From positions 112 through 64,111 of the forward strand of contig JBDRHA010000008.1 of assembly GCA_043817235.1 (NCBI GenBank): a stretch of 64,000 bases of DNA. Direction: 5' to 3'. The notes beneath the pieces were generated by a model. The model was not told the DNA's origin, made no database searches, and saw only the letters and a list, made by a program, of their open reading frames with translations. Shown here piece after piece: positions 4,105-43,305 of this stretch. The DNA comes from Candidatus Shapirobacteria bacterium. Its GTDB lineage: Bacteria; Patescibacteriota; Microgenomatia; UBA12405; BS750m-G30. Position 1 is the first letter of the stretch. The number at the start of each line of letters is the position of its first letter. The position numbers and the translations under genes were made by a program.

Positions 4105-4422
4105 ATGTTGCTTCCGTCTCATATTTTATCAAGCGTATTTATTTTAAGAACTTTATCAGTTTCATCTCTGTCCATCATGTACAATTTTGAAACTATAACT
4201 CTCTCAATCGCCTTTCAGATGCTTCCAGATCTAGATATTTTCTGGGCTAAAAAGCTTAATTCCCACCACGTTACTTATTTTCATTCTCCGCTTTTTTGGG
4301 TTACTACTTTCATAGTTTTTTATATTATTAATTCTATATTCAACTTATTCGGAAATTGGCTCCTCTATTTATATATTGTTCAAATAATCTTGCATTTATT
4401 TTTTGACTTTACCACTGGTTGA
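4105..4422 (+). CDS. DUF457/YdjM-like membrane-bound metal-dependent hydrolase (possible internal TGA, see findings)
   Basis: Start moved to internal Met after overlap with upstream ORF; multi-TM with LPDLDIF...H...HSPLFW motifs reminiscent of YdjM family; frame stays open past the TGA at 4420-4422. Confidence 0.3.
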   Translation: MLLPSHILSSVFILRTLSVSSLSIMYNFETITLSIAFQMLPDLDIFWAKKLNSHHVTYFHSPLFWVTTFIVFYIINSIFNLFGNWLLYLYIVQIILHLFFDFTTG

Positions 4423-4547
4423 ACTGCCGGTATCCCGCTTTTTTATCCGTTTGCGAAAAAAGAATTTAGTTTTTTACCACTAAACAAAATGCAAGGCGAC
4501 TTTCACCTTTTTGGGCAGCAATATCGGAATAAATCTCAGGCCTCATT

Positions 4548-4624
4548 TGGTGTCCCCGGAGAGAGTCGAACTCCCGACCTTTCGCTTAGAAGGCGAACGC
4601 TCTATCCGCCTGAGCTACGGGGAC
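4548..4624 (-). tRNA. tRNA-Arg (anticodon TCT), CCA encoded
   Basis: Reverse complement folds as cloverleaf: acceptor gtccccg/cggggac, anticodon stem ttcgc/gcgaa, loop cttctaa, T-loop ttcgact; 77 nt. Confidence 0.85.
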
Positions 4625-4699
4625 TCATGTATATTTTATCAAAACGGGAAAGAACTCCCGACCTAAAGAAACTTTTCACTTATATTTTTTAACTGATTT

Positions 4700-4775
4700 T
4701 GGGGTGGCTGAGGGGATTTGAACCCCCAACTTTCCGCTCCACAAGCGGACGCTCTGCCGTTGAGCTACAGCCACC
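4700..4775 (-). tRNA. tRNA-His (anticodon GTG) with encoded G-1 and discriminator C, CCA encoded
   Basis: Reverse complement g-gtggctg...tccgc-ttgtgga-gcgga...ggggg-ttcaaat-cccct-cagccac-c-cca. Confidence 0.85.
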
Positions 4776-4789
4776 ATATAATTACTTTG

Positions 4790-4863
4790 TCGGAGCGGCG
4801 GGACTTGAACCCGCGACCTCTGCGTCCCAAACGCAGCGCGCTAATCCACTGCGCCACGCTCCG
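4790..4863 (-). tRNA. tRNA-Pro (anticodon TGG), no encoded CCA
   Basis: Reverse complement: acceptor cggagcg/cgctccg, anticodon stem ctgcg/cgcag with loop tttggga, T-arm gcggg-ttcaagt-cccgc. Confidence 0.8.
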
Positions 4864-4883
4864 ATATACCACGTTGTCTCCCG

Positions 4884-4972
4884 TGGTGCCGAAGGTGGGA
4901 TTTGAACCCACACGAACGATAATGTCCACACGCTCCTGAAGCGTGCCTGTCTGCCAATTTCAGCACTTCGGC
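4884..4972 (-). tRNA. tRNA-Leu (anticodon CAG), type II with long variable arm, CCA encoded
   Basis: Reverse complement: acceptor gccgaag/cttcggc, anticodon stem cacgc/gcgtg with loop ttcagga, 17-nt variable arm, T-arm gtggg-ttcaaat-cccac; 89 nt. Confidence 0.8.
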
Positions 4973-5138
4973 TAAATTCTTGTCATTGCGAGTCCCTCGA
5001 CGTCACGTCGGGGGGCGCGGCAATCTCGAACGGGATTGCATTCCGTCTGGGATTGCTTCACTGCGTTCGCAATGACAAAGCAGATTGTCACTCACAGTGA
5101 CATGAACTATTATATCTAATTTAGGCGCTGACCTAAAG

Positions 5139-6494
5139 TCAATTAAGCTCTATGGCATTTGGCCGACAGATTTGGTAGGTAGTGGGGTGAAAAAGAAAGA
5201 TTGCCGGCAACTCTTCCAGCAAATATCTTTGAAAGTCGTGATAAATATTTTTCCGCTCGTCTTTGTTTAGGGTTGCTCGCCCATCTTCCAAAAGTTTATC
5301 TATTCTGGGGTTGCTAAAGCCGGTAATATTGCCGGCTTCATTGCTATGCCAAAATGGATATTGGTCGGGATCTGAAGGAATTAAGCCGTAACCCAGAATA
5401 ATATCAAAGTTTTCTTTATCAGAAATATAAGGAGAAATAAGTAAATTAACTTTTATCCCCAGCTCTTTTTCCCAATTATCTTTAATTTTTTCGGCCCAGT
5501 CGGCCAAATCATAAGTGGTGGTTACCTGAAGCTCCAAGCTGGTTAGTTCTAGTTCTTTTAGCAAAGTTCTTGCCCGGTCAGGGTCAAAAGGATAGGTTTT
5601 TACGTTTGGATTATAAGCCCACGATAAGGGAGAAATTGGGCCAAAGGCCCTTGCTCCCTCTTCCGGCTTTTGAAAAGCATAGGCCAAGGCTTGCCGGACG
5701 CTTTTATCGGAAAAAGGCTCTTTTCGGGTGTTAAAAAATAAAGCCACGTAGCGAGAAGCACTTTCTTTGACAGGAGTAATCCGCAAATTTTCCCAGCTTC
5801 TTAGGAGCTCTATGGAGTCTAGATCGCGAACACAGTCAACCTCTCCCAGTTTAAAGGCGGCAACGAGGCTTTCTTGATCAGGATAAAAACGAAAAGTAAT
5901 TTTTTTGGGGTCCAGTCCGTGCCGGCTCGCTTTTAGAGAAAGATAAGAAATATAGCCGGCACTGGAAAATACTTTTTCAATTTGGTAGTCGCCCAATCCG
6001 ATTAACCCCTTTTTGAGAAGGGGGTTGGCTACTAGGCTAGGTAAGGGCGAAAATGGTTTTTCAATGCTAACTAAAATGGAATAGCCGTCTGGATATTCAA
6101 CGCTAGCCGCTTCAATATCCAGCTGAATATCTTTGCTAAGAAGAGGTGAACCGTCTTGCCAATGAAGAAGAGGATCAAGGTGAAAGAGATACTGTTTTCC
6201 TTGCTCCTTTACTTCCCAAGAGAGAGCTGCTCCTTTTTGGGGAGTGTTATTGGTGGAAAGTTTTGTTAGGCCAAAGGATGTTAGTTCGGCGACTTCCTTG
6301 GGAAGGCGCCCGATTCTGTATTTCCCTAATATGCCCACTGAAACCTGCGAAGGCAAAAAATTTCTTAACAAGGCCTCAAGCTGGCTTCGCAATAAAAAGA
6401 AGCCAATTCCCAAAAAGATTCCTACTCCAAAAATAAATAAATTTCTTTGAAGGAAAATAACAGCGATCTTTGTTTTTCGGAAAACAAAAAACAT
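5139..6494 (-). CDS. ABC transporter substrate-binding protein, family 5 (OppA/DppA-like)
   Basis: 451 aa; N-terminal TM/signal anchor; internal blocks (FGPISPLSWAYNPNV, PFDPDRARTLLKE) typical of SBP_bac_5. Confidence 0.65.
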   Translation of the reverse strand: MFFVFRKTKIAVIFLQRNLFIFGVGIFLGIGFFLLRSQLEALLRNFLPSQVSVGILGKYRIGRLPKEVAELTSFGLTKLSTNNTPQKGAALSWEVKEQGKQYLFHLDPLLHWQDGSPLLSKDIQLDIEAASVEYPDGYSILVSIEKPFSPLPSLVANPLLKKGLIGLGDYQIEKVFSSAGYISYLSLKASRHGLDPKKITFRFYPDQESLVAAFKLGEVDCVRDLDSIELLRSWENLRITPVKESASRYVALFFNTRKEPFSDKSVRQALAYAFQKPEEGARAFGPISPLSWAYNPNVKTYPFDPDRARTLLKELELTSLELQVTTTYDLADWAEKIKDNWEKELGIKVNLLISPYISDKENFDIILGYGLIPSDPDQYPFWHSNEAGNITGFSNPRIDKLLEDGRATLNKDERKNIYHDFQRYLLEELPAIFLFHPTTYQICRPNAIELN

Positions 6495-30978: not shown

Positions 30979-32994
30979 TTACGCTTCTGCAAATTGGCTA
31001 TTATAAAGTTCTGTATAAAAACCGTTAAGACTCAGTAATTTTTCGTGTGTTCCATGCTCTATCACATCTCCGTTTTTCATTACTAAAATTAAGTCTGCAT
31101 CCCGAATAGTCGAAAGCCGATGGGCAATTACAAAACTTGTCTTATCTTTCATAAGCATGTCCATGGCTTTTTGAATTAAAACTTCTGTTCGAGTATCTAC
31201 AGAACTTGTGGCTTCGTCCAGTATTAGCATTGGCCTTTTGGCTAACATCGCTCTTGCAATGGTAAGCAGTTGTTTTTCACCTTGGGAAATATTACCGGCT
31301 TCCTCGTTTATTTCCATATCATACCCATTAGGAAGTGACTTCACAAAGTGATCGACATGTGCTTCCTGTGCGGCAGTTATAAGGTCTTTTTCGGAAGCTT
31401 CCGGGTTCCCGTAAGTAATATTGTCTCGTATCGTACCTTTAAAAAGCCAGGTGTCCTGAAGAACCATCCCAAAAAGTTTTCTCACTTCAGACCTTTTCAT
31501 CTCTTTTATGTCAACGCCGTCTATCTTAATTAAGCCGCTACCAACTTCATAAAATCTCATTAAAAGATTAACTAACGTAGTCTTTCCCGCTCCGGTTGGA
31601 CCAACGATAGCAACTCTATGCCCTGGCTCAATTTTTATAGAAAGGTTTTTAATGACTTTCTGATCAGGATTATAACCAAAAACTACGTTTTTAAATTCTA
31701 TTTTTCCCTTAACTTTCGATAAAACGATTGATTTATTAGTTTCCTTTGACTCTTCTTCTTCAGCTAGAAATTCAAAAACCCTCTCAGCTGCAGCAGCCGT
31801 TGACTGCAACACATTTGCGATATTGGCGGTTTGAGTAATCGGCCGGTTAAACTGCTGAACGTATTGAATAAAAGCCTGAATATCTCCAATTTGTAATTTG
31901 CCATTAATAGCAAGCCAGCCTCCTACAACTGATACGCCTACGTAACCCAAATTACCAATAAATGTCATTAACGGGTGCATAAGACCCGATAGAAATTGGG
32001 ATTTCCAGGCACTTTGATAAAGTTTGGAATTGATCTTATCAAATTTTTTAATGGAATCTTTCTCTCCATTGAACACTTTGACAACTAAATGCCCGGAATA
32101 CATTTCTTCAACATGTCCGTTCATCAGACCAAGACTGGCTTGTTGATTTACGAACTGAATTTGGGAACGTTTCATAATTTGGGTAATTAAGAGAAAACTC
32201 AAGGGTAAAATAATAACTGTTACCAGGGTGAGAAGCGGACTTATCGAAAGCATCATAACAATAATACCAATAATCATAACAGCCGATGTTACAATTTGAG
32301 ACAGGCTTTGGTTTAATGTTTGGCTTACCGTGTCAACATCATTGGTGACCCTGCTTAAAACTTCTCCATATCTGTGTTTATCAAAGTAACTTAAGGGAAG
32401 TCTGTTAATTTTTTCCGAAAGATCCTTTCTGAATTGATAGGTTACTTTCTGGGTAATTCCTGTCATGATCCAGCCTTGAATATAGCCAAAAGCTGCACTT
32501 AGCAAATAGAGGCCGATAAGCAGAAGAATAATGTTTCGTATACTCTCAAAATGAAAGCTAGGACGTTTGGATAGATCAAGAGACTCTATTTTGGCAAAAG
32601 TTTCAGCGGGAATTTCATTAAGTAATTGCTGTGGAAGCTTCGTAATTAAATCTGTACCTTTTATTCCTGCAGGTAGCTCAATTTCAGCGGGGAGTTTGGA
32701 GATGACTTTGTCATAAGTTTGTATGTCAGTATAATCACTTACTATCTGGTTTGTAACCTGACCTAATATTTTTGGACTGACAATGGAGAAAATAGTACTG
32801 GCTATTACAAAAATTAATACCAATGACATTTTGGACCAAAAGGGTCGTAAATAACTTGCCAGTTTTTTTATTGTGCCCTTGAAATCTTTTGCCTTTTCAA
32901 CTGGCCCTCTTGCCATCATATTTCCTCTTCTGCCAAAAGGCATACCACCTGACTGGCCCTTTGAAGATTTGATTTTATCCTGATCTTTATTCAT
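30979..32994 (-). CDS. ABC exporter, fused permease/ATPase (heterodimer subunit)
   Basis: 671 aa; 6-TM domain then Walker A GPTGAGKTTLVNLL, signature ISQGEKQ, Walker B ILDEATSSVD. Confidence 0.85.
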   Translation of the reverse strand: MNKDQDKIKSSKGQSGGMPFGRRGNMMARGPVEKAKDFKGTIKKLASYLRPFWSKMSLVLIFVIASTIFSIVSPKILGQVTNQIVSDYTDIQTYDKVISKLPAEIELPAGIKGTDLITKLPQQLLNEIPAETFAKIESLDLSKRPSFHFESIRNIILLLIGLYLLSAAFGYIQGWIMTGITQKVTYQFRKDLSEKINRLPLSYFDKHRYGEVLSRVTNDVDTVSQTLNQSLSQIVTSAVMIIGIIVMMLSISPLLTLVTVIILPLSFLLITQIMKRSQIQFVNQQASLGLMNGHVEEMYSGHLVVKVFNGEKDSIKKFDKINSKLYQSAWKSQFLSGLMHPLMTFIGNLGYVGVSVVGGWLAINGKLQIGDIQAFIQYVQQFNRPITQTANIANVLQSTAAAAERVFEFLAEEEESKETNKSIVLSKVKGKIEFKNVVFGYNPDQKVIKNLSIKIEPGHRVAIVGPTGAGKTTLVNLLMRFYEVGSGLIKIDGVDIKEMKRSEVRKLFGMVLQDTWLFKGTIRDNITYGNPEASEKDLITAAQEAHVDHFVKSLPNGYDMEINEEAGNISQGEKQLLTIARAMLAKRPMLILDEATSSVDTRTEVLIQKAMDMLMKDKTSFVIAHRLSTIRDADLILVMKNGDVIEHGTHEKLLSLNGFYTELYNSQFAEA

Positions 32995-34733
32995 AATTTT
33001 TGTGACTTTAATTCCTCGTCAGAAAGTTGCGAGTATGCTATTTCCTTATAAATTTCATTTTGTTTAAGTAGTTGCCTGTGAGTCCCCTGGCCGACAATTT
33101 TTCCTTTATCCAAAACAATAATTTTGTCGACATTCATAATTGTGCTTATGCGCTGGCCAACCACCAACATGGTTTTATTCTTAATTTCTTTTGTTAATGC
33201 CTTGCGAAGTTGGGCATCTGTTTTATAATCTAGTGCAGAAAATGAATCGTCAAAAATATAAACTTTTGGCTTTACCGCAATTGCCCGGGCAATTGAGAGC
33301 CTTTGTTTTTGTCCTCCAGAAACATTAGAACCACCCTGAGATATTTTGCTGTCATATTTTTTATTAAGTCTATTTATGAACTCTGAAGCTTGGGCAATAC
33401 TAGCGGATCTTGCAATGTCTATATCCTTTGCATTTTTGTTTCCATAATTTATATTGCTTTTAACCGTTCCGGAAAACAACACTCCTTTTTGAGGAACATA
33501 ACCAATCTGGCTATATAAGTCATTAAGCTTTAAATCCCGTATATCAACTCCATCCAGAAGAATTTGACCTGCTGTTACGTCATAAAATCTAGGTATTAAA
33601 TTTATGAGAGTCGTCTTTCCGCTCCCAGTACTACCAATAAAAGCGGTTGTCTGCCCAGGCTCTGCAGAAAAGTTGATACCGGTTAAGATAGGCACGTCTG
33701 CATCAGGATATGTAAAAGTAACATCTTTAAATTCAATTCTACCTCTTCCCTTTGGATTCGGATTAGTTGGCTTTTTGGGGTCCTTAATTAAAGGGTCAGT
33801 TTCTAAAACCTCTGCTACCCTTTTACCAGATACAGACGCCCTTGGAATCATGATAAAAACTATCGAAATCATTAAAAATGACATAATAACTTGCATCGTA
33901 TATTGCATAAAGGCGAGCATGTTTCCAATTTGAATTGAACCACTGTCTATTAAATGTAATGAGAACCAGACGATAGCAACAACAGAAAGATTAAGTACTA
34001 GCAGCATCGTTGGCTGGAGAATAGACATTAACCTGTTTACAAATAAGTTAACTTTTGTTAATTCTTTATTTGTTTTTTCAAATTTCTCTTGTTCCTTGTG
34101 CTCATTATTGAAAGCCCTAACTATCCGCAAGCCCGATAAATTTTCCCGAGTCACCAGATTAAGTTTATCTATTAATTCTTGTACGAACTTAAATTTGGGA
34201 AGACCGAAAACAAAAAGTACTGCAATCATCCCCAAAAGTGTTAAGGTGGCAAGACCGATGATCCAACTCAAAGAAGGTGCTGTGATAAGAGCCTTCTGAA
34301 GCGCACCAATAGCCATAATGGGTGCCATGAGAACGAGCCTAAAAACCATAATTAAAACCATTTGTATTTGCTGGATATCGTTTGTGGATCTTGTAATAAG
34401 AGAGGCTGTGGAGAACTTGTTAAACTCTGAAATAGAGAAGCTTTCAACTTTAGTAAAAACTTGCTTCCTTACATCCCGAGAAAATCCTGTGGCAATACGG
34501 GAGGCTAAGTACCCAACGACAGCCGCAGACACAACCCCAACAAGGGTAATCAAGAGCATTAATCCACCATTGGTGTAAATTGCCTTTGTATTCTTAAGAA
34601 TTATTCCATCATTAACGATATTGGCCATATAGTCAGGTAAGGCTAGATTTGCTATTACTTGAAGATAGGTAAATACAGCCAATACCAGAATGAGCCAAAT
34701 ATAAGGCCTTAAGAATTTTATTAATTTTGTCAT
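32991..34733 (-). CDS. ABC exporter, fused permease/ATPase (heterodimer subunit)
   Basis: 580 aa; Walker A GSTGSGKTTLINLI, signature VSGGQKQRLSIARA, Walker B IFDDSFSALD; overlaps partner by 4 nt. Confidence 0.85.
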   Translation of the reverse strand: MTKLIKFLRPYIWLILVLAVFTYLQVIANLALPDYMANIVNDGIILKNTKAIYTNGGLMLLITLVGVVSAAVVGYLASRIATGFSRDVRKQVFTKVESFSISEFNKFSTASLITRSTNDIQQIQMVLIMVFRLVLMAPIMAIGALQKALITAPSLSWIIGLATLTLLGMIAVLFVFGLPKFKFVQELIDKLNLVTRENLSGLRIVRAFNNEHKEQEKFEKTNKELTKVNLFVNRLMSILQPTMLLVLNLSVVAIVWFSLHLIDSGSIQIGNMLAFMQYTMQVIMSFLMISIVFIMIPRASVSGKRVAEVLETDPLIKDPKKPTNPNPKGRGRIEFKDVTFTYPDADVPILTGINFSAEPGQTTAFIGSTGSGKTTLINLIPRFYDVTAGQILLDGVDIRDLKLNDLYSQIGYVPQKGVLFSGTVKSNINYGNKNAKDIDIARSASIAQASEFINRLNKKYDSKISQGGSNVSGGQKQRLSIARAIAVKPKVYIFDDSFSALDYKTDAQLRKALTKEIKNKTMLVVGQRISTIMNVDKIIVLDKGKIVGQGTHRQLLKQNEIYKEIAYSQLSDEELKSQKL

Positions 34734-34745
34734 TTTACTGCTTTC

Positions 34746-35966
34746 TCACTCATATCTTAATGCCTCAATTGGTAATAGTTTTGCTGCTCGTTGGGCCGGA
34801 TAATAACCAAATACAACTCCTACGACAGAAGAAACTCCGACGGCAAGAAGAATTGAGCTAAGAGAGACAACAAACGGGATATCTATAAGTCCAGAGATCA
34901 AAAATGACAAACCAATCCCTAGTGACATTCCGATTAAACCACCTACAAGAGTTAAAACAATTGCCTCGATTAAAAATTGTGTAAGAATGTCTCCATCTCT
35001 TGCTCCGATGGATTTTAAAAGGCCAATTTCTCGCGTTCGCTCAGTCACAGTCACAAGCATAATGTTCATAATGCCAATGCCACCAACTACAAGAGAAATT
35101 GCAGCAATTCCAGATAGCAATGCTGTCAAAAGTCCTGTCACCGACCCAACAGTATCCAATGCCTGTTGTGCACTGTTTACTGAAAAGTCATTATTCGCCC
35201 CCTCGATAATATCATGCTGATCTACCAACAAAGAAGTAATGTCATTAACTGTTTGATTTACCAGCTCTCCATTTTCAACTTGTATCAAAATCTGGGAAAC
35301 ATAATCTTGTCCAAGTAATATCTTCATGGCAGTATTTACCGGAATATAGACACCTTTGTTGGGGTTTGAGAAAGCACTACTATCCTTTTCTTGAAGCACT
35401 CCTATTACTCTAAAAGACTTGTTGTCAAGTTTTATAGATTCTCCAACAGGCTCAGCTTCTTCACCAAATAAATCAGCAACAACATCCGCTCCAATTACGG
35501 CAACACGAGAAAGACTGATTTCATCATCATTACTAAAAAACTCCCCTTGGTTAATCTCAAGTGATTGGATAGTTGAATAATCTGATCCAACACCTTGAAC
35601 TGTGGCATTTACGGTTTGTCCATTGGCACTTACCTGAAGCGGTTTCGAGGCTACTCCAGATACAGCTGAGATATTTTGCAATCTAGATTTGTCGGCAAGT
35701 GCTTCTACATCTTCAAGCTTGAGTGTGTCAGTCTGGTTTTGCCGTGGCCCCTGTCCACTTCCACTTGACCCCGGAAGTATAAATACTGTATTTGTTCCAA
35801 AAGAAGACAGCTGACCAGTAATGCTTGCTGTGGCTCCTTGCCCCAGCGAGATAATTAAAATAACAGAGGCAATACCAATAATTATTCCCAGCATAGTTAG
35901 TAGGGTACGAAGAATATTTCCTCTTAAAGCCCCAATTGCAGATGATATAAGTTCGTTGTAATTCAT
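34746..35966 (-). CDS. ABC transporter permease, FtsX/MacB-like
   Basis: 406 aa; N-terminal TM, large periplasmic domain, C-terminal 3-TM FtsX fold (TERTREIGLLKSIGARDGDILTQFLIEA). Confidence 0.8.
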   Translation of the reverse strand: MNYNELISSAIGALRGNILRTLLTMLGIIIGIASVILIISLGQGATASITGQLSSFGTNTVFILPGSSGSGQGPRQNQTDTLKLEDVEALADKSRLQNISAVSGVASKPLQVSANGQTVNATVQGVGSDYSTIQSLEINQGEFFSNDDEISLSRVAVIGADVVADLFGEEAEPVGESIKLDNKSFRVIGVLQEKDSSAFSNPNKGVYIPVNTAMKILLGQDYVSQILIQVENGELVNQTVNDITSLLVDQHDIIEGANNDFSVNSAQQALDTVGSVTGLLTALLSGIAAISLVVGGIGIMNIMLVTVTERTREIGLLKSIGARDGDILTQFLIEAIVLTLVGGLIGMSLGIGLSFLISGLIDIPFVVSLSSILLAVGVSSVVGVVFGYYPAQRAAKLLPIEALRYE

Positions 35967-35968
35967 GG

Positions 35969-36661
35969 TTAGTTAATAGTATCTGAAACAATCTCACCGT
36001 CTTTTAAGCGAATCGTGCGTTTTGCAAAGGCCGCGATATCGTCTTCGTGGGTAATAAGAACAATTGTGTGCCCCTTTTTATTAAGCTCACGGAAAAAAAC
36101 CATTATTTCGTGAGCTGTTTTGCTATCCAAATTTCCGGTTGGTTCATCAGCAAGGATGATAGCTGGGTTCATTACCAACGCCCGAGCAATAGCTACCCGT
36201 TGGATTTGACCACCGGAAATATGGTTAGAAAGATTGTCTGCTTTGTCGTCAATGCCAACTAACTCCAAACATTCCATCGCTCTTTTTTTCCGTCCCTCAA
36301 TATCTATACCGGCATACATCATCGGCCGTTCAACATTTTTAAAAACAGTGGTTCGCGGCAGTAAGTTAAAAGCTTGGAAAATAAAGCCAATTTCGTGGTT
36401 TCGGATATAGGCCAGATCATCACTATTGTAAGTGCTGATATCCTTGCCTTTTAAAAAATATTTACCACTCGTGGGAGTATCAAGCGCGCCTAGAATATGC
36501 ATTGTGGTTGACTTACCTGATCCCGAAGGACCCATAATCGCCACAAACTCGCCCTGATCAATATTAAGAGAGATTCCTTTTAATGCTCTGTAGGTGTCGT
36601 TTCCAACCCCATAATCTTTAACAATCTCTTTTAGTAAAATAACAGGTGTTCTTTTTTTCAT
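35969..36661 (-). CDS. ABC transporter ATP-binding protein (MacB/LolD-type)
   Basis: Start set at MKKRTPVILLKEIVKDYG to avoid overlap with adaptor gene; Walker A GPSGSGKST, signature ISGGQIQRVAIARAL, Walker B ILADEPTGNLD. Confidence 0.85.
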   Translation of the reverse strand: MKKRTPVILLKEIVKDYGVGNDTYRALKGISLNIDQGEFVAIMGPSGSGKSTTMHILGALDTPTSGKYFLKGKDISTYNSDDLAYIRNHEIGFIFQAFNLLPRTTVFKNVERPMMYAGIDIEGRKKRAMECLELVGIDDKADNLSNHISGGQIQRVAIARALVMNPAIILADEPTGNLDSKTAHEIMVFFRELNKKGHTIVLITHEDDIAAFAKRTIRLKDGEIVSDTIN

Positions 36662-36668
36662 ACATATT

Positions 36669-37871
36669 TTACCTACCAAACGGTCCTCCGCCATTAGCTT
36701 CAACAACTCCATTCTTAGCACCAGTTATTACTTCCATACCTTCTTCGACTCCACTTATTATCTGAGTTCTTTCGGGACTCTTAATTCCCACTTCAACTGG
36801 GATATATTTTGGCATGTCGGTTTGCGGGTCGATTACTTGTACTGCCTTGCCCCCTTGGTAGGGTTTAATTGCACTGTTTGGAACTATCAAGGCATTTTCA
36901 GCTTTATCGACTACAATATCTACATTTGCCGTCATCATAGAACGGATGGAGCTCTCGGGATCAATTATTTCAACCACAACCGTATAAGTGATAACTCCAT
37001 TAGCATTTATACCAATTGTGTCTACATGGGTTACCTTGCCTTGGAACTTTTTACCTGGAAAAGCGTCAAGGGTAAAAGTGGCAGACTGATCTACCTTTAC
37101 CTTAGGAATGTCAACCTCATTTAGCTCAAGAGTTACTGTATATCTTGAGAAGTTCCCAACCACCAAAACTGGGATTCCTCCTGTGCTGCTATTTCCAGCA
37201 ACTACATGGTCACCAGCCTTAGACAAAAAATTAGCCACAGTTCCACTTGCTGGAGCGCGGACTATGATATTTTGTGTTGCGAAGTAAGCTAGTTCGGCTG
37301 ATTTCAAGGAAGCTTCGGCAGCGGCAATGGCATCATATGCGGAGTCCCTTGCTGCTTGAGCTGTAGTTCTTAATGCTTTCTGTGCAAATGTCTCATCTGA
37401 GTCATGATCTTTTACATCGTCTTCCACTTTTTGCGCAGTTGCTTCGCGATCCCGATAGGTATTCAAGGCTTGATTATAGGCAGAAGAAGCACCTTGGTAT
37501 GTAGCGAAAGCCGCGGCTTTTTCTTGATCTGTAGCAGTACTCCTCACTTTAAAAAGATTCTGACCTGCCTTAACTTCTGCGCCATTTTCAATATATACAA
37601 CCTCTATAATTCCAGTTGAGCTTGAGTAAACATCAACTATACCAGAAGAGTTTACATTCCCAGTTTCGGATACAATTTGCTCAATATTCCTTCGTTCGAC
37701 TTTCTGAAAAAGATATTCCGGTTGATTGTTTGTATTTCCAATACGATTGAATGCAAAATAAGCAACTCCAAGAATCAAGGTGACAGTAATTATTTTTTTA
37801 ACTAGGCTAAGTTTCAAAAACCATTTTTTGACACGAAGAGCCCCACCTTTTATTTTTTTAAAGATTTTCAT
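36669..37871 (-). CDS. Efflux transporter periplasmic adaptor subunit (membrane fusion protein, HlyD/MacA-like)
   Basis: 400 aa; N-terminal TM anchor, coiled-coil region, beta-barrel/lipoyl-like segments typical of MFPs. Confidence 0.7.
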   Translation of the reverse strand: MKIFKKIKGGALRVKKWFLKLSLVKKIITVTLILGVAYFAFNRIGNTNNQPEYLFQKVERRNIEQIVSETGNVNSSGIVDVYSSSTGIIEVVYIENGAEVKAGQNLFKVRSTATDQEKAAAFATYQGASSAYNQALNTYRDREATAQKVEDDVKDHDSDETFAQKALRTTAQAARDSAYDAIAAAEASLKSAELAYFATQNIIVRAPASGTVANFLSKAGDHVVAGNSSTGGIPVLVVGNFSRYTVTLELNEVDIPKVKVDQSATFTLDAFPGKKFQGKVTHVDTIGINANGVITYTVVVEIIDPESSIRSMMTANVDIVVDKAENALIVPNSAIKPYQGGKAVQVIDPQTDMPKYIPVEVGIKSPERTQIISGVEEGMEVITGAKNGVVEANGGGPFGR

Positions 37872-37872
37872 T

Positions 37873-38367
37873 TTAATTTTCCTGCTCTTCCAGTGAGTGA
37901 AGTATTTTTTTGTGGATGCGTATTAGCTCTTTTAAGTCGCTTTCTGATATTAAGTCTAAAACCTTACCCATTTTGTGAAACATCCGCTTACGTGTCTCAA
38001 CTATCTCTGATCTGCCTTTATCAGTTAGATTAAGACGCACTATTCTACGATCGTTAACGTCGGGTTTTCTTGAAATCAGTTTGTTTTCGGTTAATCTGTC
38101 TGTAAATTGAGCAATAGATGAAGATGACATGTTTACAGCTTGAGCTAGCTCACTCACAGTTGAGTTTGGACTTTCGCTCAAATAAGATAATCCTTGCATT
38201 TGCAAAATTGTCGCAGCCTTATCTTCCAAGGAGCAGTTAACACTTCTTTCTGCAATGCGACTAATTTTGGTCACTGTTGCAAAAAATTCTTCGAATAATT
38301 CTTGTTTTATATTGTTCATAATTAACTTAGACATTAAGTATCTTAACATATAAGATATTGTTGTCAA
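37873..38367 (-). CDS. MarR-family transcriptional regulator
   Basis: 164 aa; wHTH with NDRRIVRLNLTDKGR recognition/wing motif; first gene of efflux operon. Confidence 0.7.
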   Translation of the reverse strand: MTTISYMLRYLMSKLIMNNIKQELFEEFFATVTKISRIAERSVNCSLEDKAATILQMQGLSYLSESPNSTVSELAQAVNMSSSSIAQFTDRLTENKLISRKPDVNDRRIVRLNLTDKGRSEIVETRKRMFHKMGKVLDLISESDLKELIRIHKKILHSLEEQEN

Positions 38368-38697: not shown

Positions 38698-39336
38698 ATG
38701 TTAGAGAATAGGACCAGGAAAAGAATTTTTGAAATGCTTAGCCAGGCAATAAGCAGCGGGGAAGTAATTTCTCTTCGGAATATTGGGGACGAGCTTGGCT
38801 TGGCTGCCAACACGATTCTTTATCACATCAAAAAGCTTGAAGAGAAAGGGCTTGTTATCAGAAATATTGATGGCAAGGTGATCCGCATCAATTCCCCGGA
38901 AGATAATTCTGCTATTGCCTTCTTGCCTCTCTTAGGAAATGCCGCCTGTGGGGAACCCCTGGGTTCAATCGTTGAAACCGAGACGATCCGTATGATCCCG
39001 GTACCACTTAACATTCTGGGAAGAAATTCCAAGCGCAACCTCTACATGATTGAAGCAGTTGGAGACAGTATGGCAGAAAAGATTGAAAACGGTGATTATG
39101 TTATTTTCGAGCCTAACCCCTCGCCTAATCCTGGGCAGATTGTTGTGGCCAGAACAAAAGATGGATTTACAATTAAAGTTTTTAAGAAAACAGCCTCTCA
39201 GTGTATTTTGAAACCATTAAATCCAAATTATCTCCCTCTGGTTTTTGACAAAAGTGAGATAGATGAATCTTTCAACATTGACGGTGTAGCTGTGGGGATT
39301 TTTAAACCGCAGGGAAATTTAGGAGGAGGCGGGTAA
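38698..39336 (+). CDS. LexA-like repressor paralogue (wHTH + S24 peptidase), island-associated
   Basis: 212 aa; S24 catalytic Ser in AVGDSM and Lys in FTIKVFKK; N-terminal wHTH (LGLAANTILYHIKKLEEKGLV). Confidence 0.6.
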   Translation: MLENRTRKRIFEMLSQAISSGEVISLRNIGDELGLAANTILYHIKKLEEKGLVIRNIDGKVIRINSPEDNSAIAFLPLLGNAACGEPLGSIVETETIRMIPVPLNILGRNSKRNLYMIEAVGDSMAEKIENGDYVIFEPNPSPNPGQIVVARTKDGFTIKVFKKTASQCILKPLNPNYLPLVFDKSEIDESFNIDGVAVGIFKPQGNLGGGG

Positions 39337-39480
39337 AAATGGCAAAAGTTATATGCCCATTGTTTCCTAATGGTATCAGCAACATAAGATACAGGCAAAT
39401 TAGAAACCCAAGGGATTTTATTCATGTTGCCTTTATTAAAAATTCTTTTGGAAAGAGGACAAGGAAGGGGATGTCGAAAA

Positions 39481-39675
39481 ATGAAACCTAGAAATACATA
39501 CAAGTATGACTTTAAGGTCGGAAACAAAATAATGCACAGCGGGATTACTAGGAACCTAGATAGGCGTGAATTGGATCATAAACAAAAGTGGCCCAAAGGT
39601 CATACTGTTCAGATTGGCCGAAGAACAACCGAAGAAGCTGCCAGAAAATGGGAGGAAACAAAACAGAAAAGTTAA
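39481..39675 (+). CDS. Small GIY-YIG-like protein (weak)
   Basis: 64 aa from MKPRNTYKYDFKVGNKIMHSGITRNLDRRELDHKQ; Y-x10-(H/Y)SG-x-T...R...H spacing resembles GIY-YIG core; purine-rich RBS upstream. Confidence 0.3.
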   Translation: MKPRNTYKYDFKVGNKIMHSGITRNLDRRELDHKQKWPKGHTVQIGRRTTEEAARKWEETKQKS

Positions 39676-39709
39676 AATAATGATTGAGAAACGAGCAAAA
39701 TGAAAGGAG

Positions 39710-40090
39710 GTGAAATTTATGAAAAAGCGCATATTTATTAGCTTTGACTATGACCATGACAAAAACTATCGCTATTTATTGGCAGCCTTAGCCAAGAATC
39801 CACGATCTGATATTGAGTTTGACGATCTAACGCCAGAAGAGATTCAAAGCTACGATATTGGTCGAATAAAGGCAGTCTTAACGAGGAAAATAAGACAAGC
39901 TACGCATACATTAGTAATCATTGGAAAGCATGCAAATAGTTATCACCCGGACAGAGATGAAATTGGAGATCGAAATTGGCAGTGGTGGGAAATTAATAAG
40001 AGCGATGAGGAAAGAAAAGGATTTATCGCCGTAAAGATAGATTCATCCAACGACTCGCCGGAACCTTTGTATGGGAAAGGCGCAACTTGA
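39710..40090 (+). CDS. TIR-like domain protein (DUF1863/ThsB-like)
   Basis: 126 aa; N-terminal KKRIFISFDYDHDKNY strand (compare ThsB-type R-V-F-F-S-F-H-Y-x-D), THTLVIIGKH block, WQWWEINKSDEERKGFIAVKID with conserved Glu in W-E-I; GGAGG RBS 8 nt upstream. Confidence 0.55.
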   Translation: MKFMKKRIFISFDYDHDKNYRYLLAALAKNPRSDIEFDDLTPEEIQSYDIGRIKAVLTRKIRQATHTLVIIGKHANSYHPDRDEIGDRNWQWWEINKSDEERKGFIAVKIDSSNDSPEPLYGKGAT

Positions 40091-40143
40091 GCAAAAACTT
40101 TTTCTGTTGATTCAATAGTAAATGCGATTGATAATGCTTAATT

Positions 40144-40797
40144 ATGGTAGCCACCGACGATACAAAACTTGAAATTCTGCACGATCACTATAAAGAAAGC
40201 TTCTCGTACATTCGTGGATGGGAAGAAAAACGTGATAGGCTTTTTATATTTGTGATTGCTATGATTGGTGTCTTATTTCTCGAGATACAGTATTCCGATC
40301 TTTTTTCAAGTATTTTGGGGAATATCAAATTGGAGTTTATAGAATTAAATATCGCCTTAATGCCTATTTCTGTTTTTTTGAGTCTTACATGGACTTATTT
40401 GTTTACGATTATATTGAAATATTGCCAACAGTCCATCCTTATTGAAAGACAATATAACTACCTGCATCACTTAGAGGGTAAAATATCCAAGTTTTTTGGC
40501 GGCCGGAACATTTACTGCCGTGAGAGCAGAGCGTACCTCAATAAGTATCCCCTCTTTTCGGAGTTAGCCTGGATTTATTATGGCTTTTTGTTTCCATCAA
40601 TAGCGATACTCTCAGTCTGGCTAGTTATTTATCTTGAGTGGAACAAAATTTCAGGGCCACTATATCACTTGGTCTATGATTCATTTTTGAGCATAGCAGT
40701 AATTACGTGTTTGATATTTTATAGATTTTATCCTTTAGGTAAAAAAATAGTACTGAAGGTGAAAGATAGAATTAATTTGGCTTTTCGGGCGAAATAG
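40144..40797 (+). CDS. Four-TM membrane protein adjacent to TIR-like gene (candidate effector; SLATT-like?)
   Basis: 217 aa; ~35-aa cytoplasmic N-terminus, TM1-TM2, ~50-aa basic loop, TM3-TM4; 53-nt gap after TIR-like gene, same strand. Confidence 0.4.
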   Translation: MVATDDTKLEILHDHYKESFSYIRGWEEKRDRLFIFVIAMIGVLFLEIQYSDLFSSILGNIKLEFIELNIALMPISVFLSLTWTYLFTIILKYCQQSILIERQYNYLHHLEGKISKFFGGRNIYCRESRAYLNKYPLFSELAWIYYGFLFPSIAILSVWLVIYLEWNKISGPLYHLVYDSFLSIAVITCLIFYRFYPLGKKIVLKVKDRINLAFRAK

Positions 40798-42234: not shown

Positions 42235-43305
42235 TTAAATCTTTGCTAGTTGCTTAAGGAGTTGCTCGAAAGCTTTGATAGAGTAGTCCTTTATTCGCCA
42301 TTTAGCCATTATACCGAAAGAGGTTTTCATTTTTTCTGAAATTTCAGCTTCGGGAATTACCTCTTTGATTATTTTTCTCGATTCTTGGTCAATGTTTTTA
42401 GTGCCCCAAAATTCCAATTTTGGACCTTGGTTACCAGCAACTATTGGAAAGGAAATTGTTATCTTGTCACCAATGCTTGTTGTCACATAAAAATTTAAGT
42501 TTCTGGGAGTTTTGACAACAGCAACATTTTTCACCTCTTTCCCCCTTTCCTTTAATTGGTTAAAAAAGATGATCAACTTTTTAATATTTTTTTCTTCAGC
42601 TAATCCCTGATATGCTTCTACAAAATCTTCATCTGTCGGAATACTTCGGGTTGATTTAACTCCAAGGTCCTTTTTAACTTCTGCGCCGAATAACTTCGGA
42701 ATCAGAATTTCAAAGCCTTTGTGTTTGTAAAATTCCAGCTCAACTGCGTAAACGGTAAACTCACTGTTGTTATTTAAGAAGATAATCAGATCCTTTAATT
42801 GAGGATGAAGATGATCCATGAGGACTACAAACTTAAAGTTGCCGTCACTCAGATTTCTTCTGGTGTTTTCCAAAAGGTTGTCGGTTTCGTCTTCTGAGAT
42901 ACCGAAAAACTCCCCCAGCCTTTGACTTAAGGTTTTATTAAAATCCTTATTGGTATTAAGACTAACTTGTTCGACGAAATCGGTAAAATCTCGGTAATTC
43001 GACCAAAGTGATGCTCCGTAATCCAGAACCTGCGCAACCACCATTCTTTTATCCGGATTTTTGTAAAGCTTCGTTTCAATTAGATAAATCTCCCCCTCTC
43101 TATCCACACCCAAAGCATCAATCGATCCACTTTTTGTTGTAAACTCACGAGCTAAGATTAAAAGTCTTATGTCTTCTTTAATATCATAAAGGGGAATACT
43201 TTCGGGATTGTCATAAATATACTGTTGAAGATGATCTTCAAGTTCAAAATTGCTCTTGTTTATTTTGATCGCGTTCTTGCCATTTTTTGAGACGATGATT
43301 GCCAT
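42235..43305 (-). CDS. Restriction-endonuclease-like (PD-(D/E)XK fold) protein, family unassigned (Shedu/DUF4263-like possible)
   Basis: 356 aa; N-terminal GSIDALGVDREGEIYLIETKLYKN ... QVLDY fits D-(x)n-E-x-K nuclease core. Confidence 0.35.
   Translation of the reverse strand: MAIIVSKNGKNAIKINKSNFELEDHLQQYIYDNPESIPLYDIKEDIRLLILAREFTTKSGSIDALGVDREGEIYLIETKLYKNPDKRMVVAQVLDYGASLWSNYRDFTDFVEQVSLNTNKDFNKTLSQRLGEFFGISEDETDNLLENTRRNLSDGNFKFVVLMDHLHPQLKDLIIFLNNNSEFTVYAVELEFYKHKGFEILIPKLFGAEVKKDLGVKSTRSIPTDEDFVEAYQGLAEEKNIKKLIIFFNQLKERGKEVKNVAVVKTPRNLNFYVTTSIGDKITISFPIVAGNQGPKLEFWGTKNIDQESRKIIKEVIPEAEISEKMKTSFGIMAKWRIKDYSIKAFEQLLKQLAKI

Follow-up and report, generated by a model that had tools for sequence, protein, structure and literature searches.

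Thoeris systems with membrane effectors

Thoeris systems pair a TIR-domain protein, ThsB, with an effector that differs between types. A survey of about 600 million proteins (Yirmiya et al., bioRxiv, 3 December 2025, 10.64898/2025.12.03.692087; hereafter, the preprint) distinguishes 29 putative Thoeris types. Those validated there include type V, whose effector is a DUF2270 protein with three transmembrane (TM) helices and whose signal is 3' cyclic ADP-ribose (3'cADPR), type VI (DUF6650; 2'cADPR), type VII (SLATT; cADPR), and types VIII, IX, X (an ion channel) and XI. By December 2025, effectors consisting only of a membrane protein had been validated in types V, VII and X. A further, putative type carries the label '4TM'. 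The gene pair considered here is of this kind: a gene for a small ThsB-like TIR protein is followed by a gene for a protein with four TM helices (the 4-TM protein). It lies in a stretch of 64,000 nucleotides (nt) from a Candidatus Shapirobacteria bacterium (contig JBDRHA010000008.1, positions 112 to 64,111), all of which is called the window. The features of the pair in the window, with protein lengths in amino acids (aa) and L and P numbers designating loci and proteins, are as follows.

39705..39709, + strand: Shine-Dalgarno-like GGAGG, 9 nt 5' of the ATG at 39719 (read from the sequence)
39719..40090, + strand: thsB-like gene; in its present reading, a truncated TIR-like protein of 123 aa (PF08937, PADLOC, homologues)
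40088..40090, + strand: premature TGA at the codon of a near-invariant Trp, TGG in L174 (alignment, codon comparison)
40091..40141, + strand: what is left of the TIR C-terminus, still in frame (AKTFSVDSIVNAIDNA), with the original TAA at 40139-40141 (homologue alignment)
40144..40797, + strand: gene for the putative 4-TM effector, 217 aa (hydrophobic spans, charge pattern, AlphaFold2 (AF2) model, family profile)

Type VII consists of ThsB and the SLATT effector ThsH, and its signal is cADPR. Its TIRs fall into the same preprint cluster (2727267812) as the '4TM' TIRs, and a type VII TIR is 34% identical to the TIR studied here over the full length. Like the putative effector of the pair, ThsH is a small membrane protein that has helices in the cytoplasm, and the presumed shared logic is that a signal made by the TIR leads to a breach of the membrane. 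However, the effector of type VII is a SLATT protein with two TM helices, whereas here there are four and the protein is not detectably SLATT; moreover, the 34%-identical TIR lacks a 10-residue insertion that precedes the W...E motif in the TIR sub-family of the window. Type V (ThsB with the DUF2270 protein ThsF) likewise has two genes, for a TIR and a small multi-pass membrane protein with no other known function, and the preprint places a predicted ligand pocket on the positively charged cytoplasmic face of the effector. It differs in effector family, number of helices and TIR clusters; PF10028 (DUF2270) is not matched by the TM protein of the window at E<=1 and does not appear among the family matches obtained in a scan of 109 members of the 4-TM family. 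In type II (ThsB with TM-Macro; signal His-ADPR), a TIR signal is likewise presumed here to act on a membrane-spanning killer. Neither a Macro domain (at E<=1) nor any other recognisable soluble ligand-binding domain was found in the 4-TM protein, and thus a binding site, if there is one, must lie in its short cytoplasmic helices. Finally, the S-4TM, SLATT/2TM and Cap15-type effectors of cyclic oligonucleotide-based antiphage signalling systems (CBASS) are also small multi-pass membrane proteins that link a nucleotide second messenger to abortive infection. There the partner is a CD-NTase and here it is a TIR, and neither the S_4TM nor the SLATT models of Pfam show any sequence similarity to the 4-TM protein.

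Membership in the '4TM' type can be traced through the TIR proteins. Table S1 of the preprint assigns 30 TIRs to '4TM', all of them in cluster 2727267812, which also holds TIRs labelled 'SLATT - Type VII', including that of the validated system of Bacillus licheniformis SCCB 37. The TIR clusters of the preprint had been chosen for their enrichment beside defence genes. When 15 of the 30 '4TM' TIRs were compared with a hidden Markov model (HMM) of the window's TIR family, all 15 scored between 108 and 188 bits, and every one of their best-matching loci has a member of the 4-TM family downstream. Two type VII TIRs scored 59-84 bits and map to loci without this family. In addition, the '4TM' TIR IMG 2689872493 is 100% identical (136/136) to the TIR of L026, from Clostridium acetireducens DSM 10703, and the gene downstream of the L026 TIR matches the HMM of the 4-TM family with E=1e-35. 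Thus, the window pair is a member of the catalogued '4TM' candidate type. The two share the TIR sub-family, including the 10-residue insertion before W...E, and the TM family; the window copy differs in that it comes from a metagenome-assembled genome (MAG) of Candidatus Shapirobacteria, within the Candidate Phyla Radiation (CPR), and carries a nonsense codon in the TIR gene. A preliminary description, made from the window sequence, had taken the combination for an undescribed variant. That view can no longer be held, given the entry in Table S1 and the validated membrane-only effectors. The available part of the preprint contains no description of the '4TM' effector family, no link to fusions between TIR_2 and sensor domains, and no experiments on this type.

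Conservation of the gene pair

Pairing was examined in two sets of 80 loci, one from GTDB species genomes with the TIR as anchor and one from metagenomes with the TM gene as anchor, and was scored in all six frames with HMMs of the two families. TM loci were counted if they had at least 450 nt of upstream sequence (n=70), and TIR loci if they scored at least 150 bits and had room downstream (n=22). A ThsB-like TIR gene lies directly upstream, on the same strand, in 62 of the 70 TM loci, with a median gap of 14.5 nt between the aligned ends; conversely, the TM gene follows the close TIR homologue in 22/22 TIR loci. The two genes overlap or are separated by 2-30 nt. These counts show that the neighbourhood is conserved among homologues, and the TM family, which might have turned out to be a membrane protein that occurs without the TIR, almost never lacks an adjacent TIR gene. 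The pairing is near-obligate, and the analysis supports the view that the two genes are transcribed together as a conserved unit, with defence or mobile genes beside it in most of about ten long contigs.

Hosts of the pair among the Patescibacteria include Shapirobacteria, Paceibacterota, Levyibacteriota and Peribacteria. Others belong to the Bacillota, Bacteroidota, Chloroflexota, Gammaproteobacteria, Latescibacterota, Methylomirabilota, Cloacimonadota and further groups. The distribution across phyla is sporadic, and proteins from CPR, Bacillota and Gammaproteobacteria are about 77-87% identical to each other. Of the 479 homologues of the window TIR, those listed are 75-100% identical to it and mostly 139-141 aa long, an identity that points to horizontal spread.

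The TIR-like protein

The TIR protein of the window matches the Pfam family PF08937 (ThsB_TIR) with E=1.1e-9 and 39 bits (cut-off 21.2). This is the outcome that had been predicted if the first protein of the pair was a TIR of the ThsB/DUF1863 type. Its PADLOC matches are PDC-M50B (3.6e-8) and several ThsB1 models (6.6e-8). The match to the candidate system PDC-M50 concerns its B component; the TM protein has no match to any PADLOC model, and a literature search found no paper that mentions the name PDC-M50.

The open reading frame (ORF) from which the pair was recognized, at 39710-40090 on the + strand, does exist, but its start and its length of 126 aa needed correction. The true start is likely to be the ATG at 39719 rather than the GTG at 39710, since GGAGG lies 9 nt upstream and since the homologues and the NCBI annotation begin at the equivalent Met; the frame also ends at a premature TGA. 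The Glu of the W-Q-W-W-E segment is E94 if counted from the GTG and E91 from the ATG. In an alignment of the TIR family profile with Bacillus cereus ThsB (6LHY/9B7D), which is weak but colinear, this Glu falls on E85 of ThsB, the catalytic residue, and the preliminary description was therefore right in its choice of a putative catalytic Glu. The Glu of this WxxxE motif and many other residues are invariant across the family.

The AF2 model of an intact homologue, P0082, has a mean predicted local distance difference test (pLDDT) score of 85.9 and a predicted TM-score (pTM) of 0.83. Foldseek searches with this model retrieve EcThsB (8wcf), EcThsB2 (8v6t; TM-scores of 0.70-0.72) and a B. cereus TIR (8fz9), as well as the TIRs of SPARTA and STING proteins and nucleoside 2-deoxyribosyltransferases. 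P0082 also gives a full-length match to phrog_6988, a phage family of unknown function (E=3.7e-28), which indicates that close relatives of the small TIR are encoded by phages.

The four-helix membrane protein

The 217-aa TM protein contains four hydrophobic spans (33-51, ~68-91, 144-162 and 176-198). Lys and Arg cluster in three regions, the N-terminal head with 5, the central loop with 7 and the C-terminal tail with 7, and this pattern implies an N-in/C-in topology. In the AF2 model (pLDDT 82.1, pTM 0.75), the protein forms four long helices, and each half is laid out as a cytoplasmic helix, two TM helices and a cytoplasmic helix. The protein had been depicted as almost entirely four TM helices with a short head; the four spans stand, but about 45% of the protein is cytoplasmic head, loop and tail.

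A word-indexed search returned 80 relatives, and a full profile search returned 799 representatives at 50% clustering. Across the family, an N-terminal cytoplasmic helix with the motif LHDHYKESF..IR..E..R and a loop after TM2 with the motif ERQY.YLH.LE..IS...Y.RE...Y..YP are invariant or near-invariant. In a 109-sequence alignment, the information content is 1.96 bits per column in the cytoplasmic head and 2.22 in the central loop, compared with 1.08 and 0.80 in the outer loops, and 14 of the 19 positions conserved in at least 80% of sequences lie in the head or central loop. The outward-facing loops and the C-terminal tail are the least conserved regions. Thus, the partner of the TIR is not the 'bare' 4-TM protein it was thought to be: its most conserved parts are the cytoplasmic head and central loop.

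Searches of Pfam, PADLOC, NCBIfam and PHROG gave no family match for the TM protein. Among longer members of the family, the only fused domain recognized was DUF7701: P0071 and P0073, of about 300 aa, carry it at the C-terminus (PF24792, E=3.8e-29; function unknown), and the extensions of P0201, P0216 and others were uninformative.

A relationship to SLATT proteins had been raised as a question. In one locus of the set, the type VII-like L034, a TIR relative of about 40% identity is preceded by the gene of a genuine DUF4231/SLATT_1 protein (E=3.2e-27), and 35 homologues of this protein were used to build a DUF4231/SLATT_1 profile, the SLATT type that the profile-profile comparison covered. With hhalign, the 4-TM family aligns to this profile with a probability of 0.2% (positive control, 100%), and the separate halves of the TM protein score 0.3-0.4% against SLATT and 0.6% against each other. 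None of the 109 divergent family members matches the Pfam models SLATT_1-6, SLATT_fungal or DUF4231 at E<=1. The 'SLATT-like' label is not supported by these results: the Pfam scans and the hhalign scores of 0.2-0.4% give no sign of membership in SLATT, and hence in type VII Thoeris.

Pairing with TIR_2 fusion proteins

The small TIR is missing from 8 of the 70 TM loci. In seven of these eight, the gene that adjoins the TM gene encodes a TIR_2 fusion protein; in the eighth, L133, the upstream sequence is too short to judge. The usual arrangement, seen in L124, L131, L137, L142, L146 and L151, is a TM gene divergent from the gene of a large TIR_2 protein, about 300-400 nt away. L002 (1876-5670), which was found separately and lies outside the eight, has the same arrangement; its partner is a TIR_2-cyclase-kinase-PASTA fusion. 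In the divergent loci, TIR_2 is the N-terminal domain and is fused to TPR, CSD+Jag_N, Dak2 or cyclase-kinase modules. In L135 (2981-10569), the TM gene overlaps the end of a gene for a TIR_2-NACHT-TPR protein, two copies of which flank it. The TM proteins paired with TIR_2 fusions form a sub-clade of the 4-TM family, and their genes have a common upstream region that ends in a conserved '...GCCTATAATGCTGCAGGCTATTGAC...' element.

It can be argued that the TM protein is the constant output of these loci, since the sensor-bearing TIR partner varies and the TM protein does not. The 4-TM family might then be a new class of non-SLATT effector, gated by a molecule that the TIR makes and fed also by fusions of TIR_2 with sensors, although this proposal is tentative and rather doubtful at present. 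Bacterial TIR proteins fused to sensors are usually assumed to be self-contained effectors that deplete NAD+. If the 4-TM protein is indeed fed by the fusions, some of these proteins, including those of the STAND type (signal transduction ATPases with numerous domains), would generate a signal in trans for a separate effector. The pairing makes it testable whether STAND-TIR proteins signal or merely burn NAD+. Sensor-fused TIR proteins were set aside in the 2025 survey (10.64898/2025.12.03.692087).

A premature stop in the window TIR gene

In the window, codon 124 of the TIR gene is TGA; in the closest relative, L174, it is TGG. L174 is a syntenic relative with 86.6% nucleotide identity over 1945 nt. 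The TIR genes of the two loci differ by 37 synonymous and 8 non-synonymous codons, and the TM genes by 35 and 24, respectively. Downstream of the TGA, positions 40091-40141 remain in frame and still encode the conserved AKTFSVDSIVNAIDNA followed by TAA; 15/16 residues of this tail are identical in the intact homologue P0082. Thus, what appeared to be a 53-nt spacer between the genes is the tail of the TIR gene: the TGA replaces a Trp codon, and the homologues are 139-141 aa long. Within the 16 codons past the TGA, comparison with L174 reveals three synonymous changes, one replacement and no frameshift, and the nonsense change must therefore be either very recent or a read or assembly error. 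Recoding of TGA was considered and ruled out, since TGA terminates 12 of the 41 long ORFs in the window.

According to the AF2 model, the stop deletes the strand at 123-125 and the helix at 130-139, which form the last beta-alpha unit of the fold, so that the product is probably unstable. The ancestral TIR gene ends at 40141, and the ATG of the TM gene lies 2 nt further on, a spacing that suggests translational coupling. The premature stop would uncouple the translation of the TM gene from that of the TIR gene. Unless the TGA stems from an error in the reads or the assembly, the window copy is probably inactive or was inactivated not long ago, and in place of the intact two-gene system first described there is a pair whose TIR gene has a premature stop.

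Other copies are also damaged. In L001 (4343-5988), a DDE_Tnp_1 transposase gene (4583-5704) splits the TIR gene into two parts (4343-4543 and 5749-5988); this TIR gene, upstream of a 4-TM homologue, is another inactivated copy. In four metagenomic or MAG loci (L011, 697-1292; L103, 3751-4375; L118, 1151-1503; L143, 113-648), the TIR or TM gene lies in two frames, which could reflect frameshifts, or else errors of sequencing in these assemblies. Taken with the nonsense codon of the window, the split-frame copies suggest that the cassette decays frequently.

Proposed function and alternatives

By analogy with the described types, the pair is best read as a Thoeris-like signalling cassette that acts through abortive infection, and this reading is favoured with moderate confidence. 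The earlier suggestion of a module that passes a signal to the membrane thus holds as the best available reading, with the identity of the TIR, the conserved pairing, the cytoplasmic conservation of the TM protein, the excess of synonymous over non-synonymous differences from L174 in both genes and the neighbouring defence and mobile genes in its favour. Phage infection would activate the ThsB-like TIR, which would use its catalytic Glu to turn NAD+ into a diffusible signal derived from ADP-ribose. The signal could be canonical cADPR, a reasonable guess since the TIR shares a cluster with those of type VII and is 34% identical to one of them. It would bind the conserved cytoplasmic face of the 4-TM protein, which is rich in His, Tyr and Arg and is made up of the N-terminal helix together with the TM2-TM3 loop. 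The 4-TM protein might then oligomerise or open and breach the inner membrane, and the infected cell would be halted before phage progeny are released. Pore formation or membrane disruption by the 4-TM protein is putative and follows from its topology and from analogy.

Several observations weigh against this reading. The TM protein has no detectable relative of known function or structure, and its family was absent from searches of annotated plasmid, phage and IMG/VR contigs. The association with defence islands comes from about ten neighbourhoods and carries no statistic. Since the TIR of the window is truncated, a working system cannot be assumed at this locus. In two Flavobacterium loci, L030 and L031 (5995-6420), the same TIR sub-family is represented by a 141-aa protein (45% identity) whose gene has housekeeping genes on both sides and lacks a 4-TM gene downstream; the gene is an orphan or what remains of a pair. 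Finally, in the preprint, '4TM' is a putative type, 0/30 of its TIRs were chosen for experiments, and the authors warn that in unverified types the TIR could be an effector that depletes NAD+.

The last point leads to an alternative in which the roles are reversed: the 4-TM protein would be a membrane sensor or anchor that responds, for example, to phage DNA injection or envelope stress, and the activated TIR would kill by depleting NAD+, with no diffusible signal. In CBASS, Pycsar, SPARTA and Avs systems, bacterial TIRs do serve as effectors with NADase activity, and this option is left open by the preprint for its unverified types. The small TIR also has no obvious sensor domain of its own and is far more conserved (at least 75% identity among the matches listed) than the TM protein (39-91%), as if it were the TM protein that faces the phage. 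Conservation in the TM protein is cytoplasmic, however, and its outer loops are weakly conserved, which is unexpected for an external sensor. Moreover, the alternative TIR partners bear NACHT-TPR, TPR and CSD sensors, which argues that the TIR senses and the TM protein is the output, and the TIR cluster includes type VII, whose validated TIRs make a cADPR signal according to the preprint. Reversed roles are thus unlikely, if a good deal less so than the alternatives that follow. The tight arrangement of the genes, with overlaps or gaps of 2-30 nt, the mobile and patchy distribution and the several decayed copies would also suit a contact-dependent pair resembling a toxin-antitoxin system, in which the TM protein is a toxin restrained by binding of the TIR and no enzymatic signal is made. 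The invariant WxxxE motif and the very low ratio of non-synonymous to synonymous changes in the TIR instead point to an enzymatic function; replacement of the small TIR by TIR_2-sensor fusions fits poorly with a specific antitoxin interface; and in the window it is the 'antitoxin' that is truncated while the 'toxin' ORF is intact. A pair of this sort appears improbable.

About equally improbable is an origin of the 4-TM protein from a SLATT domain by duplication or extreme divergence, which would make the pair a plain type VII Thoeris system. The full-length identity of 34% to a type VII TIR, the common preprint cluster and the SLATT-like layout of each half of the TM protein would favour it, but the Pfam models remained unmatched (0/109), the hhalign scores given above are negligible for the whole protein, for its halves against SLATT and for one half against the other, and the authors of the preprint hold '4TM' apart from 'SLATT'. 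The least probable alternative, with very little in its favour overall, lies outside defence: the TIR would be a metabolic enzyme resembling 2-deoxyribosyltransferases, and the TM protein a transporter or housekeeping protein. It arises from the Foldseek results, in which the top match is a nucleoside 2'-deoxyribosyltransferase (NDT; 8pqq, E=2.9e-5) and further NDT and DNPH1 structures follow. By sequence, though, the family is ThsB_TIR and not NDT, and a metabolic role does not agree with the sporadic, horizontal distribution (about 77-87% identity between CPR, Bacillota and Gammaproteobacteria), with neighbours such as restriction-modification (R-M) systems, SIR2-DUF87, insertion sequence (IS) elements and integrases, or with a TM family that is almost never found without an adjacent TIR gene.

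If the Thoeris-like reading is validated, the 4-TM class would be a further family of Thoeris effectors, possibly with a further signal-receptor pair, and TIR signalling cassettes would be seen to be exchanged, at 75-95% protein identity, between CPR/Patescibacteria and conventional bacteria. The window itself adds little, the type being already catalogued and this copy probably dead; what remains of interest is the non-SLATT family of effectors and the fact that it also pairs with TIR_2 proteins fused to sensors.

Genomic context

Defence context was read from about ten neighbourhoods on long contigs. In most of them, R-M genes, SIR2_2+DUF87, IS elements or integrases adjoin the pair:

L167, L168: N6_N4 methyltransferase, ResIII/DEAD-YagJ protein and serine recombinase beside the pair
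L172, L173: methyltransferase and RE_CfrBI beside the pair
L169: methyltransferase, SIR2_2 and DUF87 on one side; ResIII and YagJ on the other
L003, L166, L170, L171: IS elements or integrases beside the pair
L001: DDE transposase splits the TIR gene

L169 (1219-7769) forms a compact defence island set between two tRNA synthetase genes. Genes for a helix-turn-helix (HTH) protein, a DUF559-N6_N4 methyltransferase, SIR2_2 and DUF87 (HerA-like) lie immediately upstream of an intact pair, with ResIII and YagJ downstream.

The pair of the window had been placed in an island with a serine recombinase, a PD-(D/E)XK protein and a LexA-like S24 repressor. Of these island genes, only HTH-S24 repressors (L157, L163) and large serine recombinases (L012/L109, L167/L168) recur elsewhere; the PD-(D/E)XK protein does not, and neither do an 83-aa ORF and a NUDIX gene (0 co-occurrences with the pair in 173 loci for these three). 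The module is thus taken to consist of two genes. No att-like repeats were found around the serine recombinase island other than short ones at chance level, no tRNA gene is adjacent, and scans for promoters and terminators gave nothing above chance.

The PD-(D/E)XK gene (42235-43305, - strand) lies between the serine recombinase and the NUDIX gene. Among the candidate single-gene systems of PADLOC, its 356-aa product matches PDC-S11 (E=3.9e-15) and PDC-S18 (4e-9), and it also has a weak NucS-like PD-(D/E)XK match (Pfam NucS_C, 0.0055; NCBIfam NucS, 2.7e-5). The 83-aa ORF (39424-39675, + strand) has a GIY-YIG-like N-terminal pattern, YKYDFKVGNKIMHSGITRNLDRRELDH, and no match in Pfam, PADLOC, NCBIfam or PHROGs. 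L174 contains a 64-aa counterpart of it (553-747) and, further upstream, a second GIY-YIG-like ORF of 132 aa.

The HTH-S24 protein (38698-39336, + strand) scores 101 bits against the LexA equivalog model, near the cut-off of 111, and may therefore be the LexA of the host and not belong to the island. S24 homologues with 27-29% identity are encoded immediately upstream of the TIR gene in L157 (71-664) and L163 (4671-5279), a hint that the cassette is occasionally under SOS-type control. Further to the left (32991-38367, - strand), a gene for a MarR-family regulator adjoins, on the same strand, a MacB-type efflux cluster with a periplasmic adaptor, an ABC ATPase and an FtsX-like permease, as well as another ABC exporter gene. 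All of them resemble ordinary housekeeping genes and would mark the left border of the island.

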